From positions 1-59,383 of the IMG/VR virus record IMGVR_UViG_3300010214_000044: a stretch of DNA of 59,383 bases, one strand, 5' to 3'. Source of the DNA: a virus (Duplodnaviria; Caudoviricetes). Of the stretch, positions 1 through 58,196 are shown one piece after another (position 1 is the stretch's first letter; each line of letters starts with the position of its first letter). Both the position numbers and the translations under genes were made by a program. The notes beneath the pieces were generated by a model. That model was not told the origin of the DNA, ran no database searches, and worked only from the letters and a program-made list of their open reading frames with translations.

Positions 1-843
1 ATGAGAGCTGTTCGGACTATTGCAATCGGTACAGTAGTTGCCACTTTGATGCTTACAACCATGGCAACACAGGCAGAAGTGCTCATGGGAATTAACTACC
101 ACGCCACGCTCGGCGACATCAAGAGACTGTACCCAAACGCAACATACGAGAAGCTAAAGCCTGCTTGGCTGACCGAAGAGGATGCATTCATCAAGATCTC
201 AGGAGTAGGGTTGGGCGGCACTCTTCGTGTAGCTTTCACAGATCTGAGGCCTGCCGCGAAGAGATTGCTTGCGAAAGAAAAAGATAGCAGCGCCTACAAG
301 AAATTCGCGGCCCAGAAAGACGATGACGCACTCACTGTTGAGTGGGTCAGGCTAACTTATACGGCGCCCGTCATGCTCGACACTTTCAAGAAACGATACG
401 GATCTCCTGGCAAGTGCGAGCACGACGAATCGTTCGCATTTGAATGTGAGTGGCCCAATAGGGCATTGACCGCAAGCATGTCCGCTGATGGAAAAATCGT
501 TGGAACCGTGACCACTGGCTTCACACTCAGCGAGAAACAAATGGGATACACCTTGAAGGGGGAGAAGATTCCGCCTTGGCTGAGTCCAGCCCGGAACAAT
601 CTCAGTGAAGAAGATCTGATGAAGAAGGAGTACGACACAGCTCTTGAAAGCGCAATACACGACCTAGAGCGCGCAGGCATTGACGTAAGCGGTCCGGTCC
701 ACGAGCAATTCGACAAATCAATCCGCTTTTTTGCGCAGGAAGCAATTAGGCAAGGTCTAATCGACAAGGTCGGTGATCTTGCAGCATCACACAGTGCTTT
801 AAAAAATGCAAAAGCACACATGCTGCAGCAATATGGGAAGTGA
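1..843 (+). CDS. Exported moron protein with a C-terminal domain homologous to the phage scaffolding protein
   Basis: Signal peptide (MRAVRTIAIG...ATQA-E); lower GC; opposite strand to virion genes; last 71 aa match an internal segment of 17063..18046. Confidence 0.8.
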   Translation: MRAVRTIAIGTVVATLMLTTMATQAEVLMGINYHATLGDIKRLYPNATYEKLKPAWLTEEDAFIKISGVGLGGTLRVAFTDLRPAAKRLLAKEKDSSAYKKFAAQKDDDALTVEWVRLTYTAPVMLDTFKKRYGSPGKCEHDESFAFECEWPNRALTASMSADGKIVGTVTTGFTLSEKQMGYTLKGEKIPPWLSPARNNLSEEDLMKKEYDTALESAIHDLERAGIDVSGPVHEQFDKSIRFFAQEAIRQGLIDKVGDLAASHSALKNAKAHMLQQYGK

Positions 844-970
844 AGTCTTACGCTTTGCAAGAGCAGCAATAGACAACATTCAGCCATCCGTGTCGCTCTC
901 TGATTCCGCTTGGCCCACACCGAGCTCCTAGCCCTCTGCTACATTCCTTCACATAGGAGGAATGAGAGAG

Positions 971-1222
971 ATGAGAGCTTTTCAGATCGCTGCCGTTGGT
1001 ATCACCTGCATCGTTTTGGCGGCATGTGCGAGTAAGCACGAAATCACCGCGTCTACGCCGCGCACGGTGGAGATAGCGGGCACAGCATGGAACTCAGCAG
1101 ACAACCAAAAAGCGTTTGATCTTGCACAAGCCCAATGCCAAAAGCAGGGACGACATGCCGCGCTTGCCAAGGATGGCGGCTCCAAGCCAAACGCTTGGTG
1201 GGTTTTCGACTGCGTTCTCTAA
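971..1222 (+). CDS. Small lipoprotein moron (possible superinfection exclusion)
   Basis: Lipobox LAAC after a hydrophobic stretch; AGGAGG upstream; start 962 or 971; function inferred. Confidence 0.75.
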   Translation: MRAFQIAAVGITCIVLAACASKHEITASTPRTVEIAGTAWNSADNQKAFDLAQAQCQKQGRHAALAKDGGSKPNAWWVFDCVL

Positions 1223-2032
1223 TTACTTTTTCCCAAGCCAAGCAGATCCAATCATCCCTGCCGCACTTCCAAGCCCGCCCCACAGCGAATTGCTTGATGA
1301 TCCAGCGGCGATCTGGTTCTGATTGATCTGGCTATAGGTATTCGCAGCCCCAGCCAGCCCGGCCTGGGCGCCTGCGTATCCCGAATTCAAAATCCCCTGC
1401 CCGCTCGTAGCCGCGCCCAGTCCAGCATTGGCGCTGCCAACTGCACCGGCACCAATCTGAGAGGCGATGGAGGCACTGGTGCCCTGTGCACTGGCAATAT
1501 TGCGCCCCAGATTGGCCGCGTCCATGCGCCGGGCATAGCCCTGCTGCTCCACGGTTTTCATGGCGGTATTCGCTGCGCCGGCCTTGGCTTTGGCCGCGCC
1601 AATGTCCAAAGCTCCGGCCATGGCCATCACCTTGCCGCTGGCGGGGTTCACCCCCGAGCGCTCCATGGCGCGCATCGTGGCGCCGCGCTGTGCCGCGATA
1701 CTGGTTTCCACATCGGCGCTCGCGCTGGCAGCCTCGGCCGCGCGGCGCTCCGGAGTGTCATAGGCCTGGGCATCGGCCACCAGCTTCTGCTCGAGCGGGC
1801 GATAGGTGCTGGTGTAGTCCTCATAGCCGGCCTGGGCAACCTTGTTCTGCAGGTTCTGGGCTTCCAGCTGCGATCGGGATACCTGGTCGGCAACCGCCGT
1901 GGCCGCTGCGCGTTCATCAGCCGTCTCGCCGTAGATCTGCTTCGCCCAGTCCAACTGCTCCTTTGACAGCTGCGCCTGCATCAGCGCGGCCGCGTTTTGC
2001 CCACTGGTGTCGACCTTGGTGCTCTTACCCAT
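1223..2032 (-). CDS. Internal virion / DNA ejection protein
   Basis: MGK start, Ala/Gly/Gln-rich helical sequence, Gly-rich hydrophobic C-terminus, follows a GNAT gene as in podoviruses. Confidence 0.65.
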   Translation of the reverse strand: MGKSTKVDTSGQNAAALMQAQLSKEQLDWAKQIYGETADERAAATAVADQVSRSQLEAQNLQNKVAQAGYEDYTSTYRPLEQKLVADAQAYDTPERRAAEAASASADVETSIAAQRGATMRAMERSGVNPASGKVMAMAGALDIGAAKAKAGAANTAMKTVEQQGYARRMDAANLGRNIASAQGTSASIASQIGAGAVGSANAGLGAATSGQGILNSGYAGAQAGLAGAANTYSQINQNQIAAGSSSNSLWGGLGSAAGMIGSAWLGKK

Positions 2033-2035
2033 TGC

Positions 2036-2653
2036 TCAGTCCTTTCCGGCGCGCTGCGCCCGCTCCTGGCCGCAGCCAATTCGTTTCGAGAATCCCGTGT
2101 GGGTGATCTGACCGCCCACAAACCGCGCCAGGCGGCCGGCATTGTTGGCCTCCCGCGAATGGCAGCTCATCTGCACGCGCCCCAGCTGCGCCAGTACCCG
2201 CTCGGCATAGCGCCACAGGTGCACCACCACCATCCCGCCGCGCGCGCCCTGCTCCATAAACAGCATGTCGTCACAGGCCACCGGCTCGCCCGTATTCAGG
2301 TCCTGATACAGGTTTAGCCACACGCTGCCCAGCAACTGGCCGTCGCGCCGCACGGTCAGAATCAGCAGCTGTCCGGAGCGCTCAATCTGGCGCAGCTCAT
2401 CCCACTGCACATTGGCCGGCACGCCAGGTGGCAAGGTTTCCTCGAGGAAGCGCAGGCGCTGGGCGGCCAGCTCGCCGGCGGCGGGGTCCGGCCCCAGCTG
2501 CTCGGCCTGGAACACCAGATCGCCGCGCCGCTCCACGGCCACCGCGCCCACGGACAGATCCGGCAGACACTCGGCCACCACCTCGCGCGCTACTTCGACG
2601 GTCAAAGGCTGTCCGATACGCTTGGCCAGGGCCACAGCAAGCAATCCACGCAT
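2036..2653 (-). CDS. GNAT-fold protein (position of the podovirus gp13/gp14-like gene)
   Basis: LLILTVRRDGQLLG...DMLFMEQGARGG GNAT-like pattern; GGAG RBS before ATG at 2653. Confidence 0.65.
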   Translation of the reverse strand: MRGLLAVALAKRIGQPLTVEVAREVVAECLPDLSVGAVAVERRGDLVFQAEQLGPDPAAGELAAQRLRFLEETLPPGVPANVQWDELRQIERSGQLLILTVRRDGQLLGSVWLNLYQDLNTGEPVACDDMLFMEQGARGGMVVVHLWRYAERVLAQLGRVQMSCHSREANNAGRLARFVGGQITHTGFSKRIGCGQERAQRAGKD

Positions 2654-4158: not shown

Positions 4159-7100
4159 TTACCTTTTGTGGATAGTTGCTTGCAGATAGACACTGCCCGT
4201 CGGGGTGTAACCAGCAGTCATACGAACCTCGATGGACCTGCCGCCGCCGTTACCAGAAAACGAAAATGCGAAGGAGCCGCAGCCTGGGTTGTTAAGGCTT
4301 CCAATCACAACGCTTTGAGCTGCTCCACCATCCACATACAACGTCAAGTACACAGGGTCGGAGCGCATATTGGCGAAGTTGAAGGAGCCTCCGTAGTGGA
4401 CAACGCAAGTCATTGATCCATCGAAGGCGGGCGTCCACAACGAGGCAGATGTAGATCCAGATTGCGCAAAAAGAGGCGTCGCTGCCGAATTGAGCTGCAG
4501 GTTTCCCGTTGTGACGACGTTCTCAGCCGTCAGCGTGCCGCTGAAGCTGCCCGATGCGCCGGAAAGATTGCCGCTGAAGGTCCCCGATGCTCCACTGAGG
4601 TTGCCGCTGAAAGTGGCGCTGCCGTTGACGATGGAAAACCCCGGGGCGTAGATATTTCCGCTGCTCTGGATCTCGATATAACGGCCGTTATTGGCATTGC
4701 CCAGCAAGATACCGTTCGGCCCGATGTGAAGGCCGCTCTGTCCAGCCGGCGGCCACGCATAGCCCCAGAAGCCGCCCGAGTTCAAACCGGCGCTGTTGAT
4801 GGTGATACCGCCAATGGTCCCCGCGGTCGAATAGATGGTCCCCCGCACCGTCACTTGCGAGAACTCTGCCTGCCCATTGGCGTTGATGCTCCAGCCCGTC
4901 GAACCACCAACATAGTTCGAGGAATTGATATAGGAGCCCACCGCCAGCGTTCCAGCCGTCAGCTTGGCCGCGCTCACGTTGGCGATCTTGGCGTTATCTA
5001 TGGCCGCATTGCCGATCATCGCGTTGACAATCGCGCCGTCCTGGATTGCAGCCGAACCGACAGCGATGGCACCGGCTGCGATCTTGGTTGCGGTGATAGC
5101 ACCGTCCACGATCAGGCTTGCGCTTGTCGCGCGGCGGCATACAAAGTTGGTCGCATACCAGCTACCGGCAACGGCAGATCCTGTTTCAGACACGATGCGC
5201 GCGCGCCCAAATGCCACCCCGGCAGGCACAGTGACAAACCCTTCAATCTTCTGCCAGGTATTGACCGCTGCAGGCGCGGTCAACGTGATTGCAGCCGCCC
5301 AGCCCACATGGGTACCGCTTGCGTCGCCCTGTGCACCTGTCGGGTCGATGAATTGCATCATCAGGCGGATTGCATAGCCAGTCGTCGTAGGCGATGCGAC
5401 ATATGCCGATAGGTAATAGACCTCGCCAGGGCTGGTCTGGAAATTGCGGGTGAGCACAGATTGCGCCGTTGCCTTCGACAGCAAGATACCTGCAGGCCCC
5501 GGCATATTCACCGGCACACCAGACGTGGCCGCGGTTACTTGCGTTCCGGTGAACGTCGCCCAGCTTGTCGTGTCCTGGATGAATGGATCGAGCACGATGT
5601 TGGAGTAATCCATCACCGTCAATTGCTTCACGGTGATAGCGTTTGCCGCGATCTGGTCGGCCCCAACAGCTCCCACTGCGATCTTTGCCGCAGTGATCGC
5701 ATTGGCCTCGATCTTGTCCGCTGTCACAGCGTTTGCGGCGATCTTGTCGGCGGTAATAGCGCCGTCGACAATCAGGCTACCGCCGTTCATCTTGCGCACG
5801 GTGATGGAGCCGAAGTAGCCGCCAGTGGCGGCACCCGCCAGTAAGCGCATACCGATGGTCATTCGGGTGCGCGCGCCGGTGGAGATAGTGAAGGTCTTGT
5901 AGGGCGATGCCGAAGCAGCCGCGTCGCTGTTCTGCACGACCTCGGCGTCCCAGGTTACAGCTGTATTGGTAGTCTTTACCCCTAACCTGGTCACGATCTG
6001 CAGGGTAGCTGCAGACGCGGCCTGTCGCGCGGTCTGCATCGACACGAAGTACTGGCTATTGGCCTCCAGCTGGAATCCCATATTCGCGTAAGCCCAGACA
6101 GTGGCGTCACCTGATGCTGCAGCAGGAGCCTGAATCCAGACCACGCGACGGCTTCCATAAGAAGAACTCGCGCTAGTGAAGCTGAAGGAAGACGCAGAAG
6201 AGTAACCAGCATCGTCCTGAATGTCGAAGTCAGGATAGGCGTTCGATGTGTCGGCCAGCACCATCTTCGATGCCGTAATAGCGCCATCGACGATCAGATT
6301 GCCGCCCGACTTGCGACGGATGATGGGCGCGCCCAGATAGGCGCGCGCAGTGCCGCCAGCCTCCCGCGTGTAGACCATGCGGGCATAACGCTCTGCAGCA
6401 GCTGTAGTAACGCTGAGGTTGAAGCCCACAGACGAAGTGGTAGAACTTTGTCCGACAAGCACGCGACGAGAAGCGACAGTAGAGCCTGACCCCGAGTAGG
6501 TGCCGAATTCGATATAGCTCCCCGCAAGCCCCACGGTATCAGTCACCGACGTGCTGATACGCTGCGTAAGGAGGTATTCGGCGCTCGCATCAACGCTAAA
6601 CCAGCTGCTAACGACTTCGGAGTACGAAGCTGATGGGGCGATGTTGACGATATTCTTGCCGTTGATGCCGACACCGGATGAGGTGTAGCTGAAGCTTCCG
6701 GAAACTGCTGTGCAGTAGCCCAAGTCAACGCAATCGAAGTCTCCGTAGACGTTCGTAGTGTCAGCAACCAGCAGCTTGGAAGCGAGCACCGAGCCTGCTG
6801 CCAGCTCTGTCGCGCTCACCGCGCCGGCCGCGATTTTGGCCGTCGTCACAGAGTTGGCAGCAATGGAGTCGGCTGTTACGGCGTTGGCGGCGATCTTGCC
6901 GGCAATCACAGAGTTTGCCGCGATGGCATTTGCCGTCACCGAGTTGGCGCCGAGTTCAGTTGCGGTAATCGTGCCAGCAGCGATTTCGGCAGCAGTGATC
7001 GTCTTCGCAGCGATCTTGGCTGCAGTGATTGCGCCGTCGACAATCAGCTCACCGCGAGACATTTCGGTAACTCGGAACCCGCCCCACTGAGACTCAACGA

Positions 7101-10100
7101 TAGGAGCTGCACTGCCATAGTTAAGGTAAACACCTGCGGTGAAGTAAGCAGCTTTGGGCGGAAACTTCGCAGCTCCGTCAGGGCCTACAACCAGGGCAGT
7201 GCGAGTCCAAGTTGTAGGAGTTACAGCTCCGACAGCCGGAAAGTAGAAGTTACCGGAGGCCGCATTAGTTCCTGGCCATCCGGTGCCAGGATTAGCAGCG
7301 TCAGAGCCTGTCAGCAGGGCACCGTTGACGTCATAGAAGCGGATAGACGCAAAGCAGCGATTAGTTTGTGCGCTGAGGGCAATGAACCAAGTCTCGAACA
7401 AGTACGTCTTGCTCTGGTCAATCGGCGTCTTGTACGTAGCAGGAACCTGCATGCTCGTAGCGATAGCCGCAGACAGCACGAACGGGCCCGGAGCACCAGC
7501 GACAACCTTGCGAGTGAAGTTCGCATTGGCCCACATGTCCGCGTCTTGGAAGAACGGGTCAAGGTTTACGGCATCCGTAGACGTGATTGCCAGCTTGGCT
7601 GCCGTAATGGCACCAGCCGCGATTTCGTTTGCCGACACTGCACCAGTAGCGATCTTCGCTGTGGTGACAGAGTTGGCCTGCAGATTGTCAGCGGTAATGG
7701 CGTTGGCAGCGATCTTGCCAGCAGTCACTGCGCTGGCAGCAAGTTCATTTGCAGTGACTGCGCCGACAGCAAGTTGTGCAGCCGTGATCGACTTCGCTGC
7801 GATCTTGGTAGCCGTAACTGCGCCGTCGACGATCAACTCTCCGCCCATGAGCTTGCGTGCAACGAACCCTCCGATCTTTGCAGAGGCCGTCGAGAGCGGG
7901 CCAATTACTACGTTGGCAAACTTTGCGCCAGGCAAAGCTGTTGCTGTGATGCTTGGTGCAAGACTCGTCGTCGACAGCGAGGCGTATCCCAGCGACACCT
8001 TTGCAGCGTCATAGAAGTACACGCGGCAGTAGTTTCGCGGCCCGGTCGCTTGGAACGACACGAAGTACTGAGAGCCCTCTTCGACAGAGAACATGCGGGT
8101 GCGTGCAGTACCTGTGCCTGTGCCAGCTGTGTAAGACAGAGCACCGGAAGAGATAAACCCTGCAGAGCTGAGCGGCTCGAAGACCCAGCCCGTGTAGATT
8201 TCCCAGGCTGCGGGGTCTTCCATGTTGCTGTCAGGAACGAGGTTGGTGAAGTCTCCGATAGCGATCTTGGAGGCAGTGATGGCGTTAGCTGCAATCTGGT
8301 CTGCCGACACAGCGCCGGCTGCGATCTTGCCTGCGGTAACAGCGCTGGCTTGCAAGTTGTCTGCAGAGATAGCGTTGGCTGCCACCGTGCCAGCAGTCAC
8401 GGCTCCGACTGCGATCTTGCCCGCAGTGATCGCGCCATCGACAATAAGCTCAGCTTGACCCATGACCCGCAACACGGGGTTCATGATCTTGAATGGGCCG
8501 ACAAATCTACCGGCGGCGGAGTACTGCCAACGAACACGCCAGCCGATAGCAACGTCGTCAGCAGCTACCGTATATGTACCAGACAGAATTGCGTAGCCGT
8601 TGGCCGTGCCGAGAACACGGGACGCCGCTACGTTGCTGTAAGTAGTGCCGTTGGCTTTCGTTGTAGCGATACCGATATCGACTCGCCCCTCGGCTCCGAC
8701 GTAATCACGGATGCGCAGCGAGAAGAAGACTTGACGGCCAGCCTCCATGGGCAAGCGCGGCTGTTGGACGAACTCGCCTACGTAGGCGTTAGACGCACCT
8801 GTCCGCAGGGCGGTGGTGTAGGTAGCCACGCGCTGCGCATTGTCTGCTGCCTCTCCAGCCTCGAAGCTGAAGTTCTGGATAGCGCCCACCGACCAAGCGT
8901 TGATATCGCGGAAGTCGGAGTCCGGCACAAAGTTTGTCGTGTCAGCCAGCACCACCTTGGAGGCAGTGATGGAGCCGTCGACAATCAGCTCACCCGCTGC
9001 CATCGGCAGGATAGACATTTCGGTGAACTCGACCACAGGGCCGGATGCCGACAGTTGCACACGAGCAGCCATAGCCGTATAGCCTGCCGCCTGGGTGATG
9101 ACAGCGCTGTATTCCACCCACTCGCCCACCGTGGCGCTGGCGATGGTCATGTTCCCCGGCTGTACATACTGGATGGCCTGACCAGGGCCTGTGCGCAGCA
9201 GCTCCAGGCGGGCAAGGCCTGCGGTTCCCGAGACCTTTCGCAGCTTGACCTTCACACGGAAAGCCGTGCCGGGAGCGATCTGACGGATACCGTTACTGCT
9301 TCCGTCTAGCGCCCATTCGGTGTTATAGGTTCGGCAGTTGGTAGACGTGGAAGTGATTCGCATCACCTTCGCAGCTACTCCACCAGGGCCATCAGTCACC
9401 GACACGTACTCAGCAGTGCCACCGATGGTGGCCTGCCAGCCGATACCGTCGTTGAACAGACTACCGTCAGCCAGCAGGTTTGTCGCAGACCCTACCACCA
9501 TCTTCTCGGCGGTGACAGCATTCGCCGCCAGCTCTCGCGCATTCACAGCGCCCGCAGCAATGGTGCCTGCCGTAATCGCGTTAGCCGCCACGGTGCCAGC
9601 GGTCACCGCATTGGCAGCAATCTTCCCAGCAACTACAGCGTTAGCTGCGATCTTCGGAGCCGAGATCGCGTTGTCGGCAATCTGGGTCGCGGTGATCTGG
9701 CCGACCATGTCACCAACGACTACTTCAGCCGTGTACTTCGTACCATCCCAGCGGTACAGCTTGCCGTTCCAGGTGATGACCGTGGTCGACTTGGTGGTCG
9801 GCAGGGAGCCGCCTGTTGCATTCGTCACGGGCTCGATGCCGGAGGCGAACTTGGTCGCATCTACGGCACCCGCGGCAATCTGGCCCGCGATGATCTGGCC
9901 CGTCAGGTCGGTAGTCGCCACGGCAGCGGTGTAAGCCGTTCCGCTCCAGCGGTACAACTTGCCTTGCCAAACCAGCGTCTCGGTGGTCTTGGCCGTAGGC
10001 AAGGCGCCTGCAGTCGAAACCGTCACCGGCTGGATGCCTGCTGCGAATTTGGCAGTATCAACCGCGCCGGATGCGATCTTGGCTGTCGTAACGGCGTTAT

Positions 10101-11367
10101 CAGCCAGTTGCCCGCTAGCGATCTGACCTGTCAGGTCGACGGCCTCCACCGCTGTCGTGTACTTCGTGCCGTCCCAGCGGTACAGCTTACCGTTGACGGT
10201 GATGGCGTTGGTGGATTTTGTCGTTGGCACCACGGTGCCTGCCACGTTGGTGATAGGTTCGATACCGGAAGCAAACTTCGTGGCATCGACGGCCGCAGCC
10301 GCGATCTTGTCGGCAGTCACAGCACCAGTCGCCAGCTTCCCCGCCTCGACGGCTCCGGCCGCGATCTTGTTCACCGTGACAGCGTTATCCGCAAGTTCTG
10401 CGCTAGATACCTCGGCCGTGTACTTGCTGCCATCCCAGCGGTAGAGCTTGCCCTGCCAGGTGATCACCGTGGTGGTCTTCACCGTCGGCAGGCTGGCCGC
10501 TGCGCTGTTGGTCACCGGCTCGATGCCCGAGGCAAACTTGGTCGCATCAATCGCGCCGGCCGCGATCTGGCTGGCAATGATGGTGCCCGTCAGGTCCACG
10601 GTCGGCACGGATGCCGTGTACTTGCTACCATCCCAGCGGTACAGCTTGCCCTGCCAGACAATAGTGCTGGTGCTCTTGACCGTGGGCAGCGTGCCCGCCG
10701 TGCTCACCGAGACCGGCTCAATGCCCGCCGCGAACTTGGTCGCATCCACGGCCTGCGCCGCAAGCTTGGTTGCGCTCACCGAGCCGTTGGCCAGGTTGCC
10801 GGCCTCCACAATCAGCGGCCCCAGGTCGTTGTTGCCAATCTTGCCCGTCTGCACATCCAGACCATTGGTGCCTCCAGCGGGCGATACCGACTGCACGCCA
10901 TCCTGGGACTGCCATTTGATCCACAGTCGATAGCGCGTCCCCAGCGCCGCAGGATAGGCACCGATGGTGCCCTGGAACTGGAACAGCACCACGGCCTGGT
11001 CAAACGTCGGCGCGGTGCTGCCCGTCTGCAGCACGCCATAGACCACCGTCCGGTCGTGGCCGTGCCCCTGGGTGTATGCGGGCGCATCGTGCTCCACAAA
11101 CACCGTGCTCAGGCCGGCCGACACTGCAAACCCCGTGGGCATCGGTGGTGGTGTCAGGTCCGGCTCGGTGTCGCCGCCGCCCGGCACACCGGGCACCAGG
11201 CCACCGCCTGCGCCCGGCTTGGCAATCCCTGAATCAATCAAATCCTTGGCCGTCAGGGCACGACCATTGCCGCCCCGCCCCATCAGCACGCGCAGCTCCT
11301 CGGTCACGCGCTGGCTCCAGTTCGGCGCGTTGGTACCGGGCAAATCCTTGCGGGGAGTCGTTGCCAT
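4159..11367 (-). CDS. Giant modular tail fibre / host-specificity protein (2402 aa)
   Basis: Five KLYRW repeats, 10-residue ITAxKIAAxA repeats, seven globular beta-rich inserts, gpJ-like GWSINANGQAEF segment near the C-terminus. Confidence 0.85.
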   Translation of the reverse strand: MATTPRKDLPGTNAPNWSQRVTEELRVLMGRGGNGRALTAKDLIDSGIAKPGAGGGLVPGVPGGGDTEPDLTPPPMPTGFAVSAGLSTVFVEHDAPAYTQGHGHDRTVVYGVLQTGSTAPTFDQAVVLFQFQGTIGAYPAALGTRYRLWIKWQSQDGVQSVSPAGGTNGLDVQTGKIGNNDLGPLIVEAGNLANGSVSATKLAAQAVDATKFAAGIEPVSVSTAGTLPTVKSTSTIVWQGKLYRWDGSKYTASVPTVDLTGTIIASQIAAGAIDATKFASGIEPVTNSAAASLPTVKTTTVITWQGKLYRWDGSKYTAEVSSAELADNAVTVNKIAAGAVEAGKLATGAVTADKIAAAAVDATKFASGIEPITNVAGTVVPTTKSTNAITVNGKLYRWDGTKYTTAVEAVDLTGQIASGQLADNAVTTAKIASGAVDTAKFAAGIQPVTVSTAGALPTAKTTETLVWQGKLYRWSGTAYTAAVATTDLTGQIIAGQIAAGAVDATKFASGIEPVTNATGGSLPTTKSTTVITWNGKLYRWDGTKYTAEVVVGDMVGQITATQIADNAISAPKIAANAVVAGKIAANAVTAGTVAANAITAGTIAAGAVNARELAANAVTAEKMVVGSATNLLADGSLFNDGIGWQATIGGTAEYVSVTDGPGGVAAKVMRITSTSTNCRTYNTEWALDGSSNGIRQIAPGTAFRVKVKLRKVSGTAGLARLELLRTGPGQAIQYVQPGNMTIASATVGEWVEYSAVITQAAGYTAMAARVQLSASGPVVEFTEMSILPMAAGELIVDGSITASKVVLADTTNFVPDSDFRDINAWSVGAIQNFSFEAGEAADNAQRVATYTTALRTGASNAYVGEFVQQPRLPMEAGRQVFFSLRIRDYVGAEGRVDIGIATTKANGTTYSNVAASRVLGTANGYAILSGTYTVAADDVAIGWRVRWQYSAAGRFVGPFKIMNPVLRVMGQAELIVDGAITAGKIAVGAVTAGTVAANAISADNLQASAVTAGKIAAGAVSADQIAANAITASKIAIGDFTNLVPDSNMEDPAAWEIYTGWVFEPLSSAGFISSGALSYTAGTGTGTARTRMFSVEEGSQYFVSFQATGPRNYCRVYFYDAAKVSLGYASLSTTSLAPSITATALPGAKFANVVIGPLSTASAKIGGFVARKLMGGELIVDGAVTATKIAAKSITAAQLAVGAVTANELAASAVTAGKIAANAITADNLQANSVTTAKIATGAVSANEIAAGAITAAKLAITSTDAVNLDPFFQDADMWANANFTRKVVAGAPGPFVLSAAIATSMQVPATYKTPIDQSKTYLFETWFIALSAQTNRCFASIRFYDVNGALLTGSDAANPGTGWPGTNAASGNFYFPAVGAVTPTTWTRTALVVGPDGAAKFPPKAAYFTAGVYLNYGSAAPIVESQWGGFRVTEMSRGELIVDGAITAAKIAAKTITAAEIAAGTITATELGANSVTANAIAANSVIAGKIAANAVTADSIAANSVTTAKIAAGAVSATELAAGSVLASKLLVADTTNVYGDFDCVDLGYCTAVSGSFSYTSSGVGINGKNIVNIAPSASYSEVVSSWFSVDASAEYLLTQRISTSVTDTVGLAGSYIEFGTYSGSGSTVASRRVLVGQSSTTSSVGFNLSVTTAAAERYARMVYTREAGGTARAYLGAPIIRRKSGGNLIVDGAITASKMVLADTSNAYPDFDIQDDAGYSSASSFSFTSASSSYGSRRVVWIQAPAAASGDATVWAYANMGFQLEANSQYFVSMQTARQAASAATLQIVTRLGVKTTNTAVTWDAEVVQNSDAAASASPYKTFTISTGARTRMTIGMRLLAGAATGGYFGSITVRKMNGGSLIVDGAITADKIAANAVTADKIEANAITAAKIAVGAVGADQIAANAITVKQLTVMDYSNIVLDPFIQDTTSWATFTGTQVTAATSGVPVNMPGPAGILLSKATAQSVLTRNFQTSPGEVYYLSAYVASPTTTGYAIRLMMQFIDPTGAQGDASGTHVGWAAAITLTAPAAVNTWQKIEGFVTVPAGVAFGRARIVSETGSAVAGSWYATNFVCRRATSASLIVDGAITATKIAAGAIAVGSAAIQDGAIVNAMIGNAAIDNAKIANVSAAKLTAGTLAVGSYINSSNYVGGSTGWSINANGQAEFSQVTVRGTIYSTAGTIGGITINSAGLNSGGFWGYAWPPAGQSGLHIGPNGILLGNANNGRYIEIQSSGNIYAPGFSIVNGSATFSGNLSGASGTFSGNLSGASGSFSGTLTAENVVTTGNLQLNSAATPLFAQSGSTSASLWTPAFDGSMTCVVHYGGSFNFANMRSDPVYLTLYVDGGAAQSVVIGSLNNPGCGSFAFSFSGNGGGRSIEVRMTAGYTPTGSVYLQATIHKR
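9715..10770 (-). repeat. Five intragenic repeats of about 65-85 aa (DATKFASGIEPV...GKLYRWDGxKYTA)
   Basis: Visible in protein and DNA (cccagcggtacagcttgcc-like copies). Confidence 0.9.
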
Positions 11368-13052
11368 TAGCGCAGCTCCTCCACGGCCTGGGCCAGGGCT
11401 ACGCCCTGCACTGCCTGCTGGCCCGACAGATCGATCTGCCAGGCCCGCGCAGGAATGGGCGGCAGGCGAAACGCTTCGGGCCCGGGCGCAGACAGCGTGA
11501 ACTGCACCCCGCTGCTATTGCCCGAGCTCACCGCCACACAGCGCGGGCCGAAGGTTGCGATATGCGCAGCCACCTCGCGCGCACTCAGCTCCAGGGCATT
11601 GAGCTTGATCGTCACCGGGTAGCCGTCTGCCACCACCTTGCACCAGGCAAAGCTCGCCGGCGCCGGCATGGCAAACACCTTGGACACAAAGCGCGCGCTC
11701 ATCAGCGCCGCGCCCGCATCCCATTTGCGCACCTTGGTGCCGTCCAGCACGTAGAGAGCATCCTGCAACCGGTCCAGGTACAGCGCGTCGTAGCCTTTTT
11801 CCAGGTAGAAGATGCCCGCGGGATTGATCGGGTCCACCAGAAAGCCGCGCCGCGCGCCGCCCGCGTCGGTGTAGAAGCCCAGAAACAGGCCTTCATACAG
11901 ACCTGCTACCATGCCCGCCGGGTTCATGGCCTGCCAGTCATCGCGCGTCAGCAGCCCGTTCGTGATCAGCTTGGCTCCGCCTGCTCCGTAGTAGGCCAGT
12001 CCGTCCGGTGCCGGCCAGGCCACACCATGGCCAAAGCTCACCACCGCCTGCGGTGCCAGGCAGGCCTGCCCCACCTCCAGCGGCTGCTCGTCCAGGCTGT
12101 CCGGCGAAGTGCCGGCCACCAATACCGGGTCGGCCGTGGTCAGCACCAGCAGCCGCTGCCCGAAGGTAGCCAGCGCCAGCGGCTTCGCGTCCGGCGGCAA
12201 AGTCTCATAGGCCATGGGCCAGGCATAGGGCTTGTAGGCCTCGCAATAGCGCACGGCATTGCCGCTGATGCCCGCCATCATCCCGTTCCACATGGCCGTC
12301 AGATAGGACAGATCCTGGGGCGGCTCCAGCCACTCCACCGTCTCCAGCACCTCGCCCAGCGTGCGCCCGTCGTCTGTGGTGCTCGCCACGCCTGCGGCAA
12401 TTTCGCGCAGGAAGAAGAATTCAGCAGTCCCGGTCGTGCCGGTCTGTGTGCGGTAAATCCGCACCCGGTTGATGGTGAAGGCACCCGCCGGTGGCGCCTG
12501 AATGGCCGTGATATTGACCGTCGCGTCCGTCGGCACCGTCACTGCGGCCGATACTGGCCCGGGCGCGCTCTCCTCGCCCTTGTCCGTCACATAGGTGTAG
12601 ACGTAGTAACGCACCTCGGTGTCCGTGCTGCTGCCCCCTGCCGCCGCCACCGTGGGCGCGGAAAGGGGCGCGGGCACCCCCAGCTTGCGCCAGGCCGCCG
12701 GGTAGCTGCCGCCCGCCAGCGCAATCGTGTTGTCCGTCCATTTGGGGAAGCCATCCCCCGAGTAGTAGGTTCGCTCCGTCGTGTCATCGGCCACCATGCC
12801 ACGCACGGCATGCACAATGCCCGTCCAGGACATCCAGTAGCGGCCATCCTCGGCCACATCGCGGCCAAAGCGGTAAATGGTCTTGCGGGCGACCGGCACC
12901 GTCGCCACATCCAGCGGATCGCGCCAGGGCCGAAAGTCGCCGCGCCCCGGCTTCTGGTTCCACGAAACCGTGCCCACCGTCTCCGGCAGCAGCTTGGGGT
13001 GTGGCGCATTCACGGCGCCAGAGAAACCAGAAACCGTTACCTTCATCACCAC
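11367..13052 (-). CDS. Tail tubular/nozzle protein
   Basis: About 560 aa, beta-rich, between adaptor and fibre genes. Confidence 0.7.
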   Translation of the reverse strand: MVMKVTVSGFSGAVNAPHPKLLPETVGTVSWNQKPGRGDFRPWRDPLDVATVPVARKTIYRFGRDVAEDGRYWMSWTGIVHAVRGMVADDTTERTYYSGDGFPKWTDNTIALAGGSYPAAWRKLGVPAPLSAPTVAAAGGSSTDTEVRYYVYTYVTDKGEESAPGPVSAAVTVPTDATVNITAIQAPPAGAFTINRVRIYRTQTGTTGTAEFFFLREIAAGVASTTDDGRTLGEVLETVEWLEPPQDLSYLTAMWNGMMAGISGNAVRYCEAYKPYAWPMAYETLPPDAKPLALATFGQRLLVLTTADPVLVAGTSPDSLDEQPLEVGQACLAPQAVVSFGHGVAWPAPDGLAYYGAGGAKLITNGLLTRDDWQAMNPAGMVAGLYEGLFLGFYTDAGGARRGFLVDPINPAGIFYLEKGYDALYLDRLQDALYVLDGTKVRKWDAGAALMSARFVSKVFAMPAPASFAWCKVVADGYPVTIKLNALELSAREVAAHIATFGPRCVAVSSGNSSGVQFTLSAPGPEAFRLPPIPARAWQIDLSGQQAVQGVALAQAVEELR

Positions 13053-15570: not shown

Positions 15571-16695
15571 TCAGGCATTGGGGTCGGTGCTGGCGGTGTC
15601 CAGGGCCATCACGCCAAAGTCGCGCTGGACGTTGCCGTCCTTGGACTTGTAGGTGGCCTTCTTCACGCCCATGATCGCGTGGGTACCGATGGCAACGCTG
15701 TTTTCGTGGTCCTTTTGAACCTCTGTCCAGCGGAAGCGCGTGCCGGTCTCGTTGTCGCCGTATGCGATCAGCGCGGCCTGTGCACCCAGGAACAGCGCGC
15801 GGGCGGCGTTCACATTGGAGCCAGCGCCGTAGTCGTTGAAGCGGATCACGTTGCGGTGCTTGTGCAGCACCACATCGTTGTACATGCCCAGCGTGCCCTG
15901 GAAGATGGGGTTCTTGTTGCCCTCGGCCGCAGCGGCTGCCTTCTGGATGTCCAGCCAGCCACCGGTGCCCGCGTCCTGGCGCATCGCGTCGGCCTGGTAG
16001 GTGTGCATCAGGCAGATGTAGTGACTGCCGCCTTCGATGGAGACGGGAATCATCGACAGCTCGTCGGTACCGTCGCCGCCCATGGTTTCAGCCTTTGCCA
16101 CGGCCTTGTCGATCAGGCGCAGCTTGAAGGTATCGCCAGCGGTCAGCGAAGCCTTGGACGTGGCCGCGCCGCCGAACAGAATATGCTGGCTATCGGGCGC
16201 CGTCAGCGGGTTGATGTCGAAGAATGGATTGTTGGCCGACCAGACAAAGCCCGAACCATGGCCGCGCGAGCCGGACAGGTAGATGAAGTACAGCTCATCC
16301 TGCAGGCGCTTCCACCAGTCAGTGGCCGCGCGCTTGGCATCGCTGCGCAGGTCGCGCAGCGTGCGCTTCTTGGTCATGCGCGAGCCCAGATCCGCGCCGC
16401 CGCGCACCTGGTCGATGCGCAGACGGTCGGTGTAATACTTGAGTGGCGCTTCCTTGCCTTCCAGGGTTTCGTCACCGATGACGGGCTCCTGGTTGATGGG
16501 CATCAGCAGGTCAACGGTTACTTCGTCACCGGCACCTTGCTGAAGATCATCGATTCGCTGGATGGGCAGACGCGAATCCTTGCCATTGCCCACGAACTTA
16601 CGAGACCAATAGCTTTCCTTGTTGATGGCCACGGCCATCAGAGAGGCCCACTTCTTGACGGCTTGCGGGTCGTTAACGCCGATCAAAGTACGCAT
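15571..16695 (-). CDS. Major capsid protein, N4-gp56 family
   Basis: AVKKWA, PIQRIDDLQQGAGD and ARALFLGAQA motifs; start MRTLIG with AGGAG RBS. Confidence 0.9.
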   Translation of the reverse strand: MRTLIGVNDPQAVKKWASLMAVAINKESYWSRKFVGNGKDSRLPIQRIDDLQQGAGDEVTVDLLMPINQEPVIGDETLEGKEAPLKYYTDRLRIDQVRGGADLGSRMTKKRTLRDLRSDAKRAATDWWKRLQDELYFIYLSGSRGHGSGFVWSANNPFFDINPLTAPDSQHILFGGAATSKASLTAGDTFKLRLIDKAVAKAETMGGDGTDELSMIPVSIEGGSHYICLMHTYQADAMRQDAGTGGWLDIQKAAAAAEGNKNPIFQGTLGMYNDVVLHKHRNVIRFNDYGAGSNVNAARALFLGAQAALIAYGDNETGTRFRWTEVQKDHENSVAIGTHAIMGVKKATYKSKDGNVQRDFGVMALDTASTDPNA

Positions 16696-16838
16696 AACGC
16701 AACTCCTGCCCTTGCGAGCACTGAGCGCGTCTTGCGCTTGAACCGGGCAACTGCCCCCGGCGGCAATCTGCTGCATGAAGATGGCGCCAGCAAAGGCGCC
16801 GCAGCTAGGAAAAAAGAATAATCCTGAATTCCAGGAAA

Positions 16839-17063
16839 TCAAGTACCCATGGGGGCGTGGCGCCGCGCATGCAGGGTCTTGTGACCCCGGGGCTCGTCAC
16901 CCCGTGCATGCGTGGGCTTATCCACCACCACGTCGTCCTCCAGATGCAGGCTCAACTCAGCGCGTTGGCCCGTGCGTTGGCGCAGCGTAACCACCACGCG
17001 GCCGCCGTCGAAAGACAGGCTCTCGCCCGCCTTGATCTGTCGTATGAGTCTGCGTCCGGACAT
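16839..17063 (-). CDS. CsrA-like small protein
   Basis: LIRQIKAGESLSFDGGRVVVTL..TGQRAELSL follows the CsrA beta pattern (GExL, VxVT, G). Confidence 0.55.
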   Translation of the reverse strand: MSGRRLIRQIKAGESLSFDGGRVVVTLRQRTGQRAELSLHLEDDVVVDKPTHARGDEPRGHKTLHARRHAPMGT

Positions 17064-18046
17064 CAGGCCCCCAGGTAGCGTTCTTGTTGATCGGGCGTCA
17101 TGCGCGCCAGGGCTTTTTCCAGGGCAGTGCCCTCGAGGCCATCCAGGTGAGCGAACTCGCTGCCCACCGCGGCGTCGGCTGCAGCTGGAACCCCGGCCAG
17201 CGTGGGCGGCAGTGTCGAGCGGTCAGCAGCGGCCGGCTTGCGTGTGGCCGGTGCGGCTGGTGCTGCCGCGGGTGCAGAACCAGGCGCAGCAGCAGCGGGA
17301 GCCGCGGCCGAGGCCTTGCCAAATCGGCGCAGCATCAGTGCTTGGGCTTCGGCCAGCGCGTCGCGCGAGGCGGCCATATTGCCTGCGGCATCGGTCAGGC
17401 CGCGGTCAATTGCGTCCTGAGCAAACAGGCGGATAGCTCGGTCGAACTGCGCGCCCGCCTCGCCCGACAGGTCGATGCCAGCGGCCTTCAGTTCCTTCTG
17501 CGCCGCGCCCAGATGCTGCCCATACTCCTGCATCATGGCGTCCTGCTGCATCTGGGAGCGCGCCATGTCCACCGCCGCCGCGCGCGCTAGGTCGTCCAGC
17601 TTGTCCTGCACGCGGGACTCGACCTCTTGATAGGCTTCCTGGTCAATCTCGCCATCCAGCAGTTGCTGCAGGGCGGTGGCCTTTTCGGCGCGCAGGGTCT
17701 TGCGCTGCTCATCCGCATCGGCAGGAGACACGGGCTGCATCGCTGCAGGGGCTGGTGCATCCGCGTCATCGTCAGCCGCGCCTGCTTCGCTGGCGGCAGG
17801 GGCCACGCCGGCAGCCGTGTCATCGGCGCCAGTGGCAGCACCTTCTGCAGGCTTGTTGGCTGCTGCCGCTGCCGCTGCCGCGCTCTCGTCATCATCATCA
17901 TGATCAGCAGCAGCAGAGGCCGCGCCGGCTTCACCAGACTCGCCCGCAGGGGCCTGCAGATCCTGGTCGTCTTCTGCCAGGTCGCGCAGTGCTTCGCGCT
18001 CTGCTTCGCTCAGTCCGGCAAGGTCTTCTTCGCTAAACATGGACAT
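17063..18046 (-). CDS. Scaffolding protein
   Basis: Acidic and helical, between portal and capsid; C-terminal LEKALARMTPDQQERYL. Confidence 0.75.
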   Translation of the reverse strand: MSMFSEEDLAGLSEAEREALRDLAEDDQDLQAPAGESGEAGAASAAADHDDDDESAAAAAAAANKPAEGAATGADDTAAGVAPAASEAGAADDDADAPAPAAMQPVSPADADEQRKTLRAEKATALQQLLDGEIDQEAYQEVESRVQDKLDDLARAAAVDMARSQMQQDAMMQEYGQHLGAAQKELKAAGIDLSGEAGAQFDRAIRLFAQDAIDRGLTDAAGNMAASRDALAEAQALMLRRFGKASAAAPAAAAPGSAPAAAPAAPATRKPAAADRSTLPPTLAGVPAAADAAVGSEFAHLDGLEGTALEKALARMTPDQQERYLGA

Positions 18047-18056
18047 GGTGGCTCCT

Positions 18057-20303
18057 TTATTCGGTGGGTACCAGTTGGGTCAATGGTTGGGGTGAGGGCT
18101 GCGCCATGGAATCGGCTGGCGCTGGGAGATTGATGCCGTCATCAGCCAGGCCGGCCGAGGAGGTGATTTCGTCGGCGGCTGGTGCGAGGCCGGGCTGGGC
18201 GGTCACGATCTGGGCGCCTTCCAGCGCGGCCAGCATGGTCTGCACCTTCTTCAAGATGTCGTCTACGCCCAGCTTCTTAATCTGGGCCTCCGCCAGCTGG
18301 ATCTCGGTCTGCATCTTGGCAAGCTGGGTGCGCGCCGTTTCGCTGGCCATCTGCTCGGCTTCGGCTTGCTTGGCCTGCGCATCCTGGTCGGCCTTCATCT
18401 CTTCGGGTGTGGGCGGCTTGCTGGGGTCGCGCTGGCCGTTGATTTTGCGAATGCGCGCAACCCACTCTTCCTTGCCCTGGATGTCCGCAGACTCCACCAC
18501 CAGATCCAGCACCGACAGCACCACCTGGGGCGCGTAGGTGGCGATCTGGCCCAGCAGGCCGAACATCTGCTCGAGCGCGGACTGAGCCATGGAAGACCGA
18601 TAGTCCTGGGCATCCACGATGAAATCCGCTTCGCGCGCCGTGATGTCGTTGAGGATCTGCCCGGTCGCGGGGTCCACCTGGTTGATCGTCAGCCATTCAA
18701 TGGGGCGCTGGCCCTCGCCCACGATGCGAATCACCTTCTCCTCGGTATAGAACTGCTCGATGTGGCTCAGGCGCAGCTGGCCGGCCTGGCGGATGGCCAG
18801 CAGCAGGTTGTCGAAGAACTCGCTGGTGGTCAGCGAGCCCTGGTCCTGCTTGGCGAGAATGGCGCGCCCGCTGTTGGCATTGGTGTCGCGCCCCAGGTTC
18901 TCATCGGTCACGCCGCCAGCATTGCGAATCAGCTGCGCATCCTGGGCAGCCAAGGCCACATTGGCCTCGAAGTCGCCCATGTTGTTGTCGAACTTCAGTT
19001 CCCTATTGGGGTTCTTGATGATGATGCCGTCCGGCCGCGCAGCCTCATTGCGCAGGTCGTCCCAGTCATCCACCGCGCCCTTTTCCGCAATGATGCGGTT
19101 CACGCTCAGGGCATACAGGGCCTTGGAGCGGCGCTTGTTCAGGTCGTCCTGAATGTCGCGCATGCCACGCCAGGCACCATAGGCCAGCCCGTCGCGCGCC
19201 CGGCGATATCCCCAGATGGGAACCATCAGAAAGCGGTTGTGCTTGAACGGGCTGGCCATGTCCAGGCAGGGCGCATCCTTGGTGCACAGCATCAGGCGCA
19301 TGCGGAACTTCACGGCCTCGTACAGTCGCGCGCGGCCCTGGTCCTGCTCGAAGGCGTGGCGCGGATCTGCCGGGTTGAACACCTTGCCCGCGAAAGGGCC
19401 GTCTGCAAACACAGGCACCCGCTCGGGGATGCGGTACCAGCACTCCAGCAGCTCCACCGACCGGCGGCTGCTGTTGTCGTAGTAGCCAGCACGGGACATA
19501 TAAGCCGCGCGGGCCCCGTAAATGCTGCTGGCAGTGCCCCATTCCGTCTCGCTGGCGCTGGTCAGACGCTCGCCCAGGTACCAGATCCCGTCCGGATCCA
19601 CGTCGTCGTGCCGTCCAGCCTGAGACATCAGGTGATCGCGGCTATCGGGCAGCAGGGCCACGGCATAGTCCAGGTCCACCACGCGCCGGCGAAACAGATA
19701 GCGCGCGTCCACGTTGTAGTCGATGTTGCGGCTATGGCTATCGCGGTAGACGTTGCGCCAGTCCTCCCAGCCCGAATAGATCAGCTCGGCCTCGGGGTCG
19801 CGGTTGGCCCCCTCCTCCAGCCAGCTCAGGCCGGCAGTCACGGCCTGTCGGAAAGCCCGGCTGCGGTGCCACTGGGTCATGTTCACGTCGTCCGTGTACT
19901 TGATCAGCTTGGTCTTGACCTCGGCCATGGCCTCGTCGTCGCGCTCGCGGGGCAACACCTTGTAGTCCTTGCGCATGCGCTTTTCGGTACCGCAGATCCA
20001 TTCAATGGTCTGCCGGCCTTCATTGAAGACCACCGGCGCCTGGCCGCGCTCCATCAGCGCCTGGGCATCCTCGGGCTTCCACTGCAAATGGTCCTGGTAG
20101 TCCTCATCGATCTGCATCTGCTGGCGCTCTTCACCCTGGCGCTCGCTCTCGTACTTCAGCAGCTCCATCAGCGTGTTGTGCCGCTGCCTGGTCAGCTCGT
20201 CATTGCCCGCTGCCGCGCGCTCGGCGGGCTGCTCTTGATCGGCGTTACTCGAGGAGTCTGCTGCTCGAGCACTGGTTGGGATGTCGCGCACTTCAAACAT
20301 CAC
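18057..20303 (-). CDS. Portal protein (P22-like)
   Basis: QW..EDAQALMERGQAP, DIQDDLNKRRSK and NANSGRAILAKQDQG motifs. Confidence 0.9.
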   Translation of the reverse strand: MMFEVRDIPTSARAADSSSNADQEQPAERAAAGNDELTRQRHNTLMELLKYESERQGEERQQMQIDEDYQDHLQWKPEDAQALMERGQAPVVFNEGRQTIEWICGTEKRMRKDYKVLPRERDDEAMAEVKTKLIKYTDDVNMTQWHRSRAFRQAVTAGLSWLEEGANRDPEAELIYSGWEDWRNVYRDSHSRNIDYNVDARYLFRRRVVDLDYAVALLPDSRDHLMSQAGRHDDVDPDGIWYLGERLTSASETEWGTASSIYGARAAYMSRAGYYDNSSRRSVELLECWYRIPERVPVFADGPFAGKVFNPADPRHAFEQDQGRARLYEAVKFRMRLMLCTKDAPCLDMASPFKHNRFLMVPIWGYRRARDGLAYGAWRGMRDIQDDLNKRRSKALYALSVNRIIAEKGAVDDWDDLRNEAARPDGIIIKNPNRELKFDNNMGDFEANVALAAQDAQLIRNAGGVTDENLGRDTNANSGRAILAKQDQGSLTTSEFFDNLLLAIRQAGQLRLSHIEQFYTEEKVIRIVGEGQRPIEWLTINQVDPATGQILNDITAREADFIVDAQDYRSSMAQSALEQMFGLLGQIATYAPQVVLSVLDLVVESADIQGKEEWVARIRKINGQRDPSKPPTPEEMKADQDAQAKQAEAEQMASETARTQLAKMQTEIQLAEAQIKKLGVDDILKKVQTMLAALEGAQIVTAQPGLAPAADEITSSAGLADDGINLPAPADSMAQPSPQPLTQLVPTE

Positions 20304-24991: not shown

Positions 24992-25020
24992 ATTATCTTC
25001 ACGCCCACACCTCGGATCAA
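24992..25020 (-). promoter_or_regulatory. Candidate sigma70-type promoter for the lysis cassette
   Basis: Minus strand TTGATC-17 nt-GATAAT. Confidence 0.45.
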
Positions 25021-57974: not shown

Positions 57975-58196
57975 ATGAGCAATACAGAAAAGCCCAAGAC
58001 TCAAATTCAACCCCTTGTTTACACCAAGGCGCAGTTACCGGCCATTTTGGGGCTCAGCAAGGCCACCATCGACCGCATGCGCAAGGACAAGGAATTCCCC
58101 GAGGCCATCGTGCTTTGCAAAAATAAAGTGGGCTGGCCAGTCGAGGTGGTGAAGCAATGGATTGCCCAGCGGCCAGCCGCGACGGGCATTTATTGA
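57975..58196 (+). CDS. AlpA-family excisionase
   Basis: LGLSKATIDR....FP......VGW...V.QW. Confidence 0.9.
   Translation: MSNTEKPKTQIQPLVYTKAQLPAILGLSKATIDRMRKDKEFPEAIVLCKNKVGWPVEVVKQWIAQRPAATGIY

Follow-up and report, generated by a model that had tools for sequence, protein, structure and literature searches.

Scaffolding proteins are usually viewed as strictly cytoplasmic, transient assembly chaperones. The locus at the left edge of this provirus raises the question of how a stretch resembling such a protein came to stand at the end of a putatively exported product, and what it may be doing there. The window is the whole stretch of DNA that was analyzed, a provirus record of 59,383 bases with an estimated completeness of 79%; its first base is where the provirus caller cut, not where the prophage ends. 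PHROG scans place an integrase at 58190-59383 (minus strand) and an excisionase-like gene at the right edge, together with replication and recombination genes and a lysis cassette. Among deposited phages, the only relatives at the DNA level are Burkholderia podoviruses of the DC1/BcepMigl group, which match part of the capsid gene at 79-80%, and the DC1 gene order (portal, gp44, small ORF, CsrA-like gene, capsid) is identical. The open reading frame at 1-843 is a moron-type cassette gene of this Bcep22/DC1-like temperate podovirus. Internal virion proteins are encoded in the window, including a phrog_511 protein at 11367-13052, and two minus-strand frames are giant, one at 25017-35816 (3599 aa) and one at 4159-11367 (2402 aa, matching tail-fibre PHROGs); giant virion proteins are typical of Bcep22-like phages.

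The gene in question is made up of the following parts.

1-843, plus strand: fusion gene, 280 aa and a stop codon, starting at the first base of the record with its upstream leader outside the window.
1-75, plus strand: putative signal peptide, residues 1-25, with the expected cut between TQA and E (by inspection; the model has a helix at residues 2-21).
76-585, plus strand: N-domain, residues 26-195, a predicted alpha/beta fold that ends at the family's PxWL motif (DUF4309 (YjgB)/YfeY-like in the model).
589-840, plus strand: tail, residues 197-280, scaffold-derived by BLASTP, six-frame search, phmmer, alignment and model.
619-621, plus strand: in-frame ATG (M207), with upstream bases ...GTGAAGAAGATCTG and no GGAGG.

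A protein identical to the 280-aa product is recorded from bacterial contigs that reach 1.0 Mb, and a near-identical allele, called as a 305-aa protein (P0017), lies on a contig of 5.76 Mb. The gene resembles known phage morons and lysogenic-conversion cassettes in its lower GC content, its position on the strand opposite the late operon, a ribosome-binding leader of its own, its predicted exported product and its variable presence among related prophages. The first two of these properties had been noted in the first-pass annotation and are borne out here, with a GC content of 0.50 compared to 0.60-0.68 in the neighbouring late genes. It differs from those cassettes in that its product is a chimera whose C-terminal module comes from a head-assembly protein, and in that the cassettes around it share a single leader of 50-60 nt that marks the points of exchange.

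By inspection, the N-terminus reads as a putative signal peptide, MRAVR followed by a hydrophobic run and the TQA/E site, and the pattern of A or S before E at the expected cut is kept across 30 relatives. The N-domain is modelled with high confidence (pLDDT 91-97 over residues 31-190). Residues 25-175 superpose on Bacillus subtilis YjgB (4ygt_A) with Z 9.9 and rmsd 3.3 over 116 of 148 aligned residues and on Escherichia coli YfeY (2qzb_B) with Z 8.7 (both by VIA-align), while Foldseek returns 4ygt with a probability of 0.99 and E 9.6e-3. The fusion protein would share with YjgB and YfeY both this fold and export, which in its own case is predicted; unlike it, they have no helical tail, and they are without known function. 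The likeness does not extend to sequence families: at E <= 1, Pfam gave no match of the N-domain to PF14172, nor any family at all, including PF09306 (Phage-scaffold), for either the fusion protein or the 327-aa scaffold-position protein introduced below, and the only lead toward the P22-type scaffold family PF09306 was an Atlas feature score of 0.89. PHROG searches at E <= 0.01 found no family for the 280-aa protein, compared to a match of the resident scaffold to phrog_8246 at 1.3e-29. The NCBIfam and PADLOC searches gave nothing usable, with no PADLOC family for the fusion protein, for the lipoprotein encoded next to it or for P0005, a second carrier of the tail fragment that is described below.

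The tail has its counterpart about 16 kb away, in the head-gene region on the other strand.

15571-16842, minus strand: major head protein gene (phrog_334, E 7.5e-114).
16839-17063, minus strand: CsrA-like gene between the scaffold-position and capsid genes (phrog_8397, E 1.8e-6).
17063-18046, minus strand: gene for the scaffold-position protein, 327 aa (phrog_8246), between the portal and major head genes.
17315-17563, minus strand: residues 162-244 of that protein, the block homologous to the tail (BLASTP, six-frame search).
18057-20303, minus strand: portal gene (phrog_156, E 9e-136).

The similarity between the tail and the scaffold-position protein is real. BLASTP aligns residues 197-280 of the fusion protein with scaffold residues 162-244 at 40 identities in 84 positions with one gap (E 2e-20), and a six-frame search of the whole record recovers this pair and nothing else. 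The ungapped alignment reported earlier, 36 identities in 71 residues between nucleotides 628-840 and 17315-17527, is exact; when the tail was shuffled 2000 times and compared to the scaffold, the best ungapped window never held more than 18 identities (mean 12.9). The homology begins 13 residues ahead of that 71-residue stretch, where A197-R198 align with A162-R163. A second shared motif, SEEDL, had been put forward as well. It does occur in both proteins, but it carries no weight as evidence, as 17% of shuffled pairs share a 5-mer, and the SEEDL of the moron aligns with QQDAM (scaffold residues 167-171) and not with the scaffold N-terminus; we rejected it as being at chance level. By hand count over ten scaffold sequences, 15 of the 17 scaffold-invariant positions in the aligned range are kept in the tail, the exceptions being R203K and R241Q. 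Next to the latter, the tail has Q in place of R240 as well, a change that P0005 has in common with it. Twelve columns are invariant across the scaffolds, the tails and P0005.

Structure models place the shared block at the end of a folded unit. The 327-aa protein is predicted to consist of an acidic disordered region (residues 31-98), a helical core (101-245, pLDDT 93-97), a disordered linker and a C-terminal helix-turn-helix (307-326), and the aligned block covers the second half of a long helix (136-188) together with helices 196-214 and 225-242. The tail, modelled at a moderate pLDDT of 54-77, has helices at 203-224, 232-250, 254-262 and 264-278, which correspond to the last three of the scaffold, so that, in these models, the tail consists of the three final helices of the folded scaffold core. 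Its last residue, K280, aligns with K244, at the end of the confident part of that core, where scaffold pLDDT falls from 95 (residues 231-240) to 60 and then 41. Compared against structures on its own, the tail reached a VIA Z of at most 6.5, which is noise level for helical proteins. It is without the first one and a half core helices and all other parts of the scaffold, and the earlier statement that the copy lacks the scaffold's C-terminal tail holds, as helices 307-314 and 318-326 have no counterpart in it. SaPI1 CpmB-type scaffold mimics reportedly share the coat-binding C-terminus.

We read the 327-aa protein as a scaffolding protein from its position and its predicted architecture. It is the gene at 17063-18046, and not the distant fusion gene on the other strand, that occupies the portal-to-head position, and its product is collinear with gp44 of phage DC1 at 29% identity, where gp44 adjoins the portal gene. 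The family phrog_8246 is annotated as being of unknown function, and no named match was found for the protein in Pfam, NCBIfam, PDB sequences or BFVD: no PDB sequence matched the scaffold profile at an E below 0.068, and BFVD held no named scaffold above noise. The tail is thus like P22 gp8-type internal scaffolds in being homologous to the most conserved block of a protein (here phrog_8246) with scaffold position and architecture, and it differs from them in standing behind a putative signal peptide and in having, like its donor, no match to PF09306. As side observations, a tblastn search of the scaffold against phages matched only in its last 52 aa, where residues 276-327 (window 17066-17221) share 60% identity with a hypothetical protein found in two Microcystis phages (H7 and H8), and the CsrA-like regulator gene at 16839-17063 (minus strand) has the same placement in Burkholderia phage DC1.

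A survey of homologues indicates which of the two proteins lent the domain. A profile search with the N-domain yielded 29 related clusters, giving 30 aligned sequences together with the window protein. Three of these carry the tail, namely the window protein, P0001 (93% identical) and P0002 (86%); the other 27 end in the junction region without it. The nearest tail-less relatives, P0003 (55-57% identical) and P0004 (49-50%), end in WLK and WLQ, respectively, where the window protein reads WLSP-AR..., and many others have short, variable, K/P-rich C-terminal ends instead. In the other direction, an exhaustive phmmer search of 1.84 billion representatives with the tail alone gave 12 hits, comprising the fusion family, nine scaffold-like proteins (E 1.6e-11 to 4.9e-4), the repeat protein P0009 and P0005. 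In the nine scaffold-like hits, the domain lies at about residues 165-250 of proteins that are 294-334 aa long, or inside a fragment of 184 aa. The repeat protein P0009 (670 aa, 10 matching stretches) was judged unrelated and omitted from the alignments and the tree. Because the domain sits within a larger core in all nine scaffold-like hits, the direction of transfer was from scaffold to moron, and these sequence comparisons show a domain that is native to the scaffold family and that was joined to the exported protein at the position of an ancestral stop codon. The earlier claim that an exported accessory protein captured a structural-protein domain is therefore supported by its presence inside the larger core of 9/9 scaffold-like representatives and in only 3/30 N-domain relatives.

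The fusion itself has a narrow distribution. No match to the fusion protein was obtained by tblastn against 50,697 phage records, pattern scans of viral and genome contigs turned up no relatives, whether the protein or alignment A1 served as the query, and a metagenome scan returned one distant, tail-less relative (L003). Among related viral records, 16 of 18 loci were compared, the two left out having matched only the last 52 aa; none of the 16 has the fusion, the N-domain is absent from all, and 15 give one match each to the fusion protein, which is always the scaffold gene and at most 48% identical. Among the literature matches listed, none concerns a scaffold-derived domain in an exported prophage protein. 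The tail carriers form a clade of at least 86% identity, so the tail is young relative to the N-domain family.

We found that the copy itself is not recent. Third-position GC content is 0.48 in the tail, close to that of the rest of the gene, and 0.78 in the resident scaffold block; the two blocks share 56% of their nucleotides and 39% of their third positions, and the codon is the same at 16 of the 40 identical residues. The GC3 values and the nucleotide identity rule out a recent copy of the resident scaffold gene, and the shift in GC3 combined with the low third-position identity implies that the reading frame stayed open through a long divergence. A maximum-likelihood tree built from 14 rows of the block (P0009 and duplicate alleles omitted) groups the tails and P0005 with the resident scaffold and P0006, apart from the other eight scaffolds, with support of 98/99. 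The tails and P0005 have long branches, and their grouping with each other has support of 89/90. The description of the domain as the phage's own consequently stands in part. The tail does belong with the resident scaffold lineage in the tree, but at 48% identity to the resident gene it is no closer to it than to the scaffolds of the 15 related records (at most 48%), and its codon make-up is the moron's, not the scaffold's. The donor was thus a scaffold of the resident phage's lineage, with a copy that is either old or derived from an unsampled relative of lower GC content.

Comparison of alleles bears on whether the tail is maintained. The window protein and P0002 differ by 14.1% in both domains (24/170 in the N-domain and 12/85 in the tail). 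The window protein differs from P0001 or P0017 by 2.9% in the N-domain and by 13-14% in the tail (Fisher P 0.002-0.004), with most of the tail changes bunched beyond residue 223 (223-273, the distal two thirds), which suggests allelic mosaicism through recombination between tail alleles, or else faster change in that part. The 12 tail replacements relative to P0001 are conservative, with a mean BLOSUM62 score of 1.5 that was reached in 0 of 20,000 draws of random single-base changes; relative to P0002, the mean is 0.42, which is marginal (P 0.08), compared to 0.04 for the N-domain's own replacements. Taken together, the codon shift, the kept invariant residues and the conservative changes favour a tail under constraint, as judged from sequence. 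The first-pass annotation had held that homologues without the tail, or neutral evolution of it, would speak against its idea, and the outcome is split: distant homologues do lack the tail, and the tail does not look neutral.

The same evidence bears on an explanation in which the tail has no function, being a by-product of illegitimate recombination between the 3' end of the exported-protein gene and a remnant of a scaffold gene, with the helices merely tolerated. We regard this as unlikely, though it has several points in its favour. Only 3/30 relatives carry the tail and all are at least 86% identical; the variable K/P-rich appendages of many relatives show a C-terminal end that tolerates additions; the tail covers no more than a portion of a folded core and is modelled with lower confidence; and the lack of stop codons is uninformative, the probability of no stop in 12 hits being 0.58. 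A tolerated remnant is, however, difficult to reconcile with 15/17 scaffold-invariant positions kept after codon composition had fully shifted (GC3 0.48 compared to 0.78), with conservative replacements in a tail that has diverged as much as the constrained N-domain, with a copy that stops exactly at a domain boundary, or with the recurrence of the same fragment in P0005.

The first-pass annotation had proposed a different role, in which translation from the ATG at 619 yields a 74-aa cytoplasmic scaffold fragment that poisons the capsid assembly of related phages as a dominant-negative decoy. The ATG is present and in frame, as had been stated, but it is not a new start. M207 corresponds to Met171 of the scaffold, a residue that is nearly invariant in the scaffold family, and it is therefore an inherited methionine; P0005 has the same Met (in DLM). 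Upstream of it there is only a weak purine run (GAAGAAG) and no GGAGG-type site, compared to the AGGAGG at the true start of the fusion gene. The full product bears a putative signal peptide, and both architectures that carry the fragment start with predicted export or membrane signals. Furthermore, a decoy of this kind would also threaten the prophage that encodes it, and the conserved scaffold arginines R240 and R241 have been lost. A precedent does exist in satellites that reportedly use scaffold-like proteins against helper phages (PMC5644958). On balance, we did not uphold the proposal and consider a decoy very improbable. The fusion protein is like the SaPI1 CpmB satellite scaffold mimics in being a relative of a phage scaffold encoded on a mobile element; it differs in being predicted to be exported and in lacking the coat-binding end, while those mimics are reportedly cytoplasmic and act on capsid size (PMC5644958).

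P0005 provides a second architecture in which the fragment appears. This 264-aa protein, with two near-identical members, has hydrophobic segments at 10-32, 46-65 and 75-94, and its residues 124-204 are the tail fragment (hhalign probability 98%, E 1e-13). The possibility that it holds further scaffold C-terminal sequence was rejected, as hhalign aligns only 124-204. Its topology is ambiguous, since a K/R-rich loop at 65-75 argues for an outside C-terminus and R97 and R99 after the third segment argue against it. The finding of two architectures with putative export or membrane signals, and none without, speaks for a fragment that acts at the envelope and against a decoy in the cytoplasm, and from the signal peptide we infer that the fusion protein is Sec-exported and periplasmic. 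A periplasmic interaction module is a better fit to these sequence features than a decoy. A complex prediction of scaffold residues 120-250 with tail residues 196-280, run without controls, gave a score of 0.00 and a mark of 0.32, and is given no weight in either direction.

The reading that we prefer, with a probability of about one half, is an exported moron protein with a captured and retained helical module of the scaffold core that works in the periplasm. The product of 1-843 would be a Sec-exported periplasmic protein whose residues 26-195 come from a small exported family with a DUF4309/YfeY-like fold. In a narrow lineage, the family's stop codon would have been replaced in frame by about 85 residues, the last three core helices of the scaffold-position protein of this phage group. 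Selection would then have kept the fragment, outside the cytoplasm, as a helical module for protein binding or self-association that serves the N-domain, and it would not act as a decoy of capsid assembly. Two further points agree with this reading: the best structural matches of the N-domain are secreted or envelope proteins, and the cassette array places the gene beside another predicted exported product, a lipoprotein. Several points weigh against it: the tail, modelled with moderate confidence, is an incomplete part of the scaffold core that might not fold alone; it is restricted to a young clade, and 27/30 N-domain relatives do without it; the conservative pattern is marginal relative to P0002; the topology of P0005 is ambiguous; and the fusion is absent from all 16 related viral records. 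A scaffold fragment has long stood behind a putative export signal and recurs behind hydrophobic segments in P0005; if the reading is true, then head-assembly modules can be recruited for envelope functions.

An envelope-level function in the lysogen is most likely under this reading, with the exclusion of related phages as our leading guess; what the tail module would bind is likewise a guess. One specific version holds that the scaffold fragment, displayed on the DUF4309-like carrier (or on a membrane anchor in P0005), mimics the scaffold core in the periplasm and traps the ejected internal virion proteins of superinfecting relatives, the ejection proteins that scaffolds normally load, thereby blocking the DNA-delivery conduit. 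The idea draws on phage P22, where ejection proteins depend on the scaffolding protein for their loading into procapsids (PMC8402733) and where the prophage protein SieA blocks the conduit that those proteins build (PMC10883804). The fusion gene would be similar to sieA in being a prophage accessory gene with a predicted envelope location that is possibly aimed at incoming relatives (PMC10883804). Large internal virion proteins are encoded by the resident phage (the phrog_511 protein and the 3599-aa ORF), and an accessory cassette array beside a lipoprotein fits exclusion genes. However, the binding of internal proteins by a scaffold core is argued by analogy with P22, whose scaffold shows no detectable sequence relation to this one, and PADLOC found no match. 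We hold this version to be a long shot. Were virion internal proteins the target, the fusion would offer a simple and specific route to excluding related phages, and it would provide a handle on which part of the scaffold family binds what.

The preferred reading, a captured module in an exported moron, also draws on the organization of the DNA downstream of the gene, where three further features lie.

844-931, plus strand: 3' flank of the cassette up to a cluster of breakpoints (contigs of other runs stop matching at 932-934).
932-986, plus strand: shared cassette leader with AGGAGG, ATGAGAGAG and ATGAGAGCT, read from the sequence, with copies in G001, G004, G005 and G006.
971-1222, plus strand: next cassette, a predicted small lipoprotein cut between MRAFQIAAVGITCIVLAAC and A..., with lipobox LAAC (alternative start at 962; weak lipoprotein-family hints only).

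The first bases of the window repeat this leader, with bases 1-9 equal to 970-978 and 15/17 of the first bases in agreement. When contigs from four public runs were compared over window positions 1-2100, positions 1-931 were present in two of the four; the other two runs, and further contigs of the first two, have different letters before 932-934. Some contigs also swap the body of the next gene, with joints that lead from 984-997 to 1308-1333. One contig has a copy of 933-970 directly 5' of the ATG of the fusion gene (joint 970 to 1), and the leader is also read through in the 305-aa call of P0017. In two RNA libraries, contigs match only from 932, the organisms in question carrying other letters before it. 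The recombination breakpoints in public contigs thus cluster at the two ends of the leader (932-934 and 984-997), and the fusion gene looks like one cassette of a leader-bounded array of swappable morons, which converges on the end of the virion module. Such a shared-leader array is a tidy natural system for studying moron swapping among related prophages.

Copies of the leader, which spans about 50-60 nt, reads ...TTCACATAGGAGGAATGAGAGAGATGAGAGCT and takes in the first three codons (MRA), precede several different small plus-strand genes. We observed them at L042/L050 (G006, about 4950-5330), L052 (G001), L049 (G005) and L039/L051 (G004), and the genes behind them encode, for example, products of 94 aa and 134 aa (the latter a lipoprotein) in G006 and, in G001, a lipoprotein of 77 aa; a scan of viral contigs with the leader pattern gave 0 matches. 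The lipoproteins of these related prophages begin with MRAFQI, as does the 971-1222 product, and have unrelated bodies of 77 and 134 aa. The 971-1222 lipoprotein had no family match beyond the weak hints.

Two minor observations concern G006. To the left of its array, L050 (G006:1-4600) has ORFs that by eye resemble a thermonuclease, a DUF262-type protein and an SOS-response-associated peptidase, and this region may be a defence or accessory island. In G006 (L042, L048), moreover, the structural gene that adjoins the array is present twice, as diverged copies (87% and 80%) that each have leader copies, which may reflect two related prophages in tandem or a duplication.
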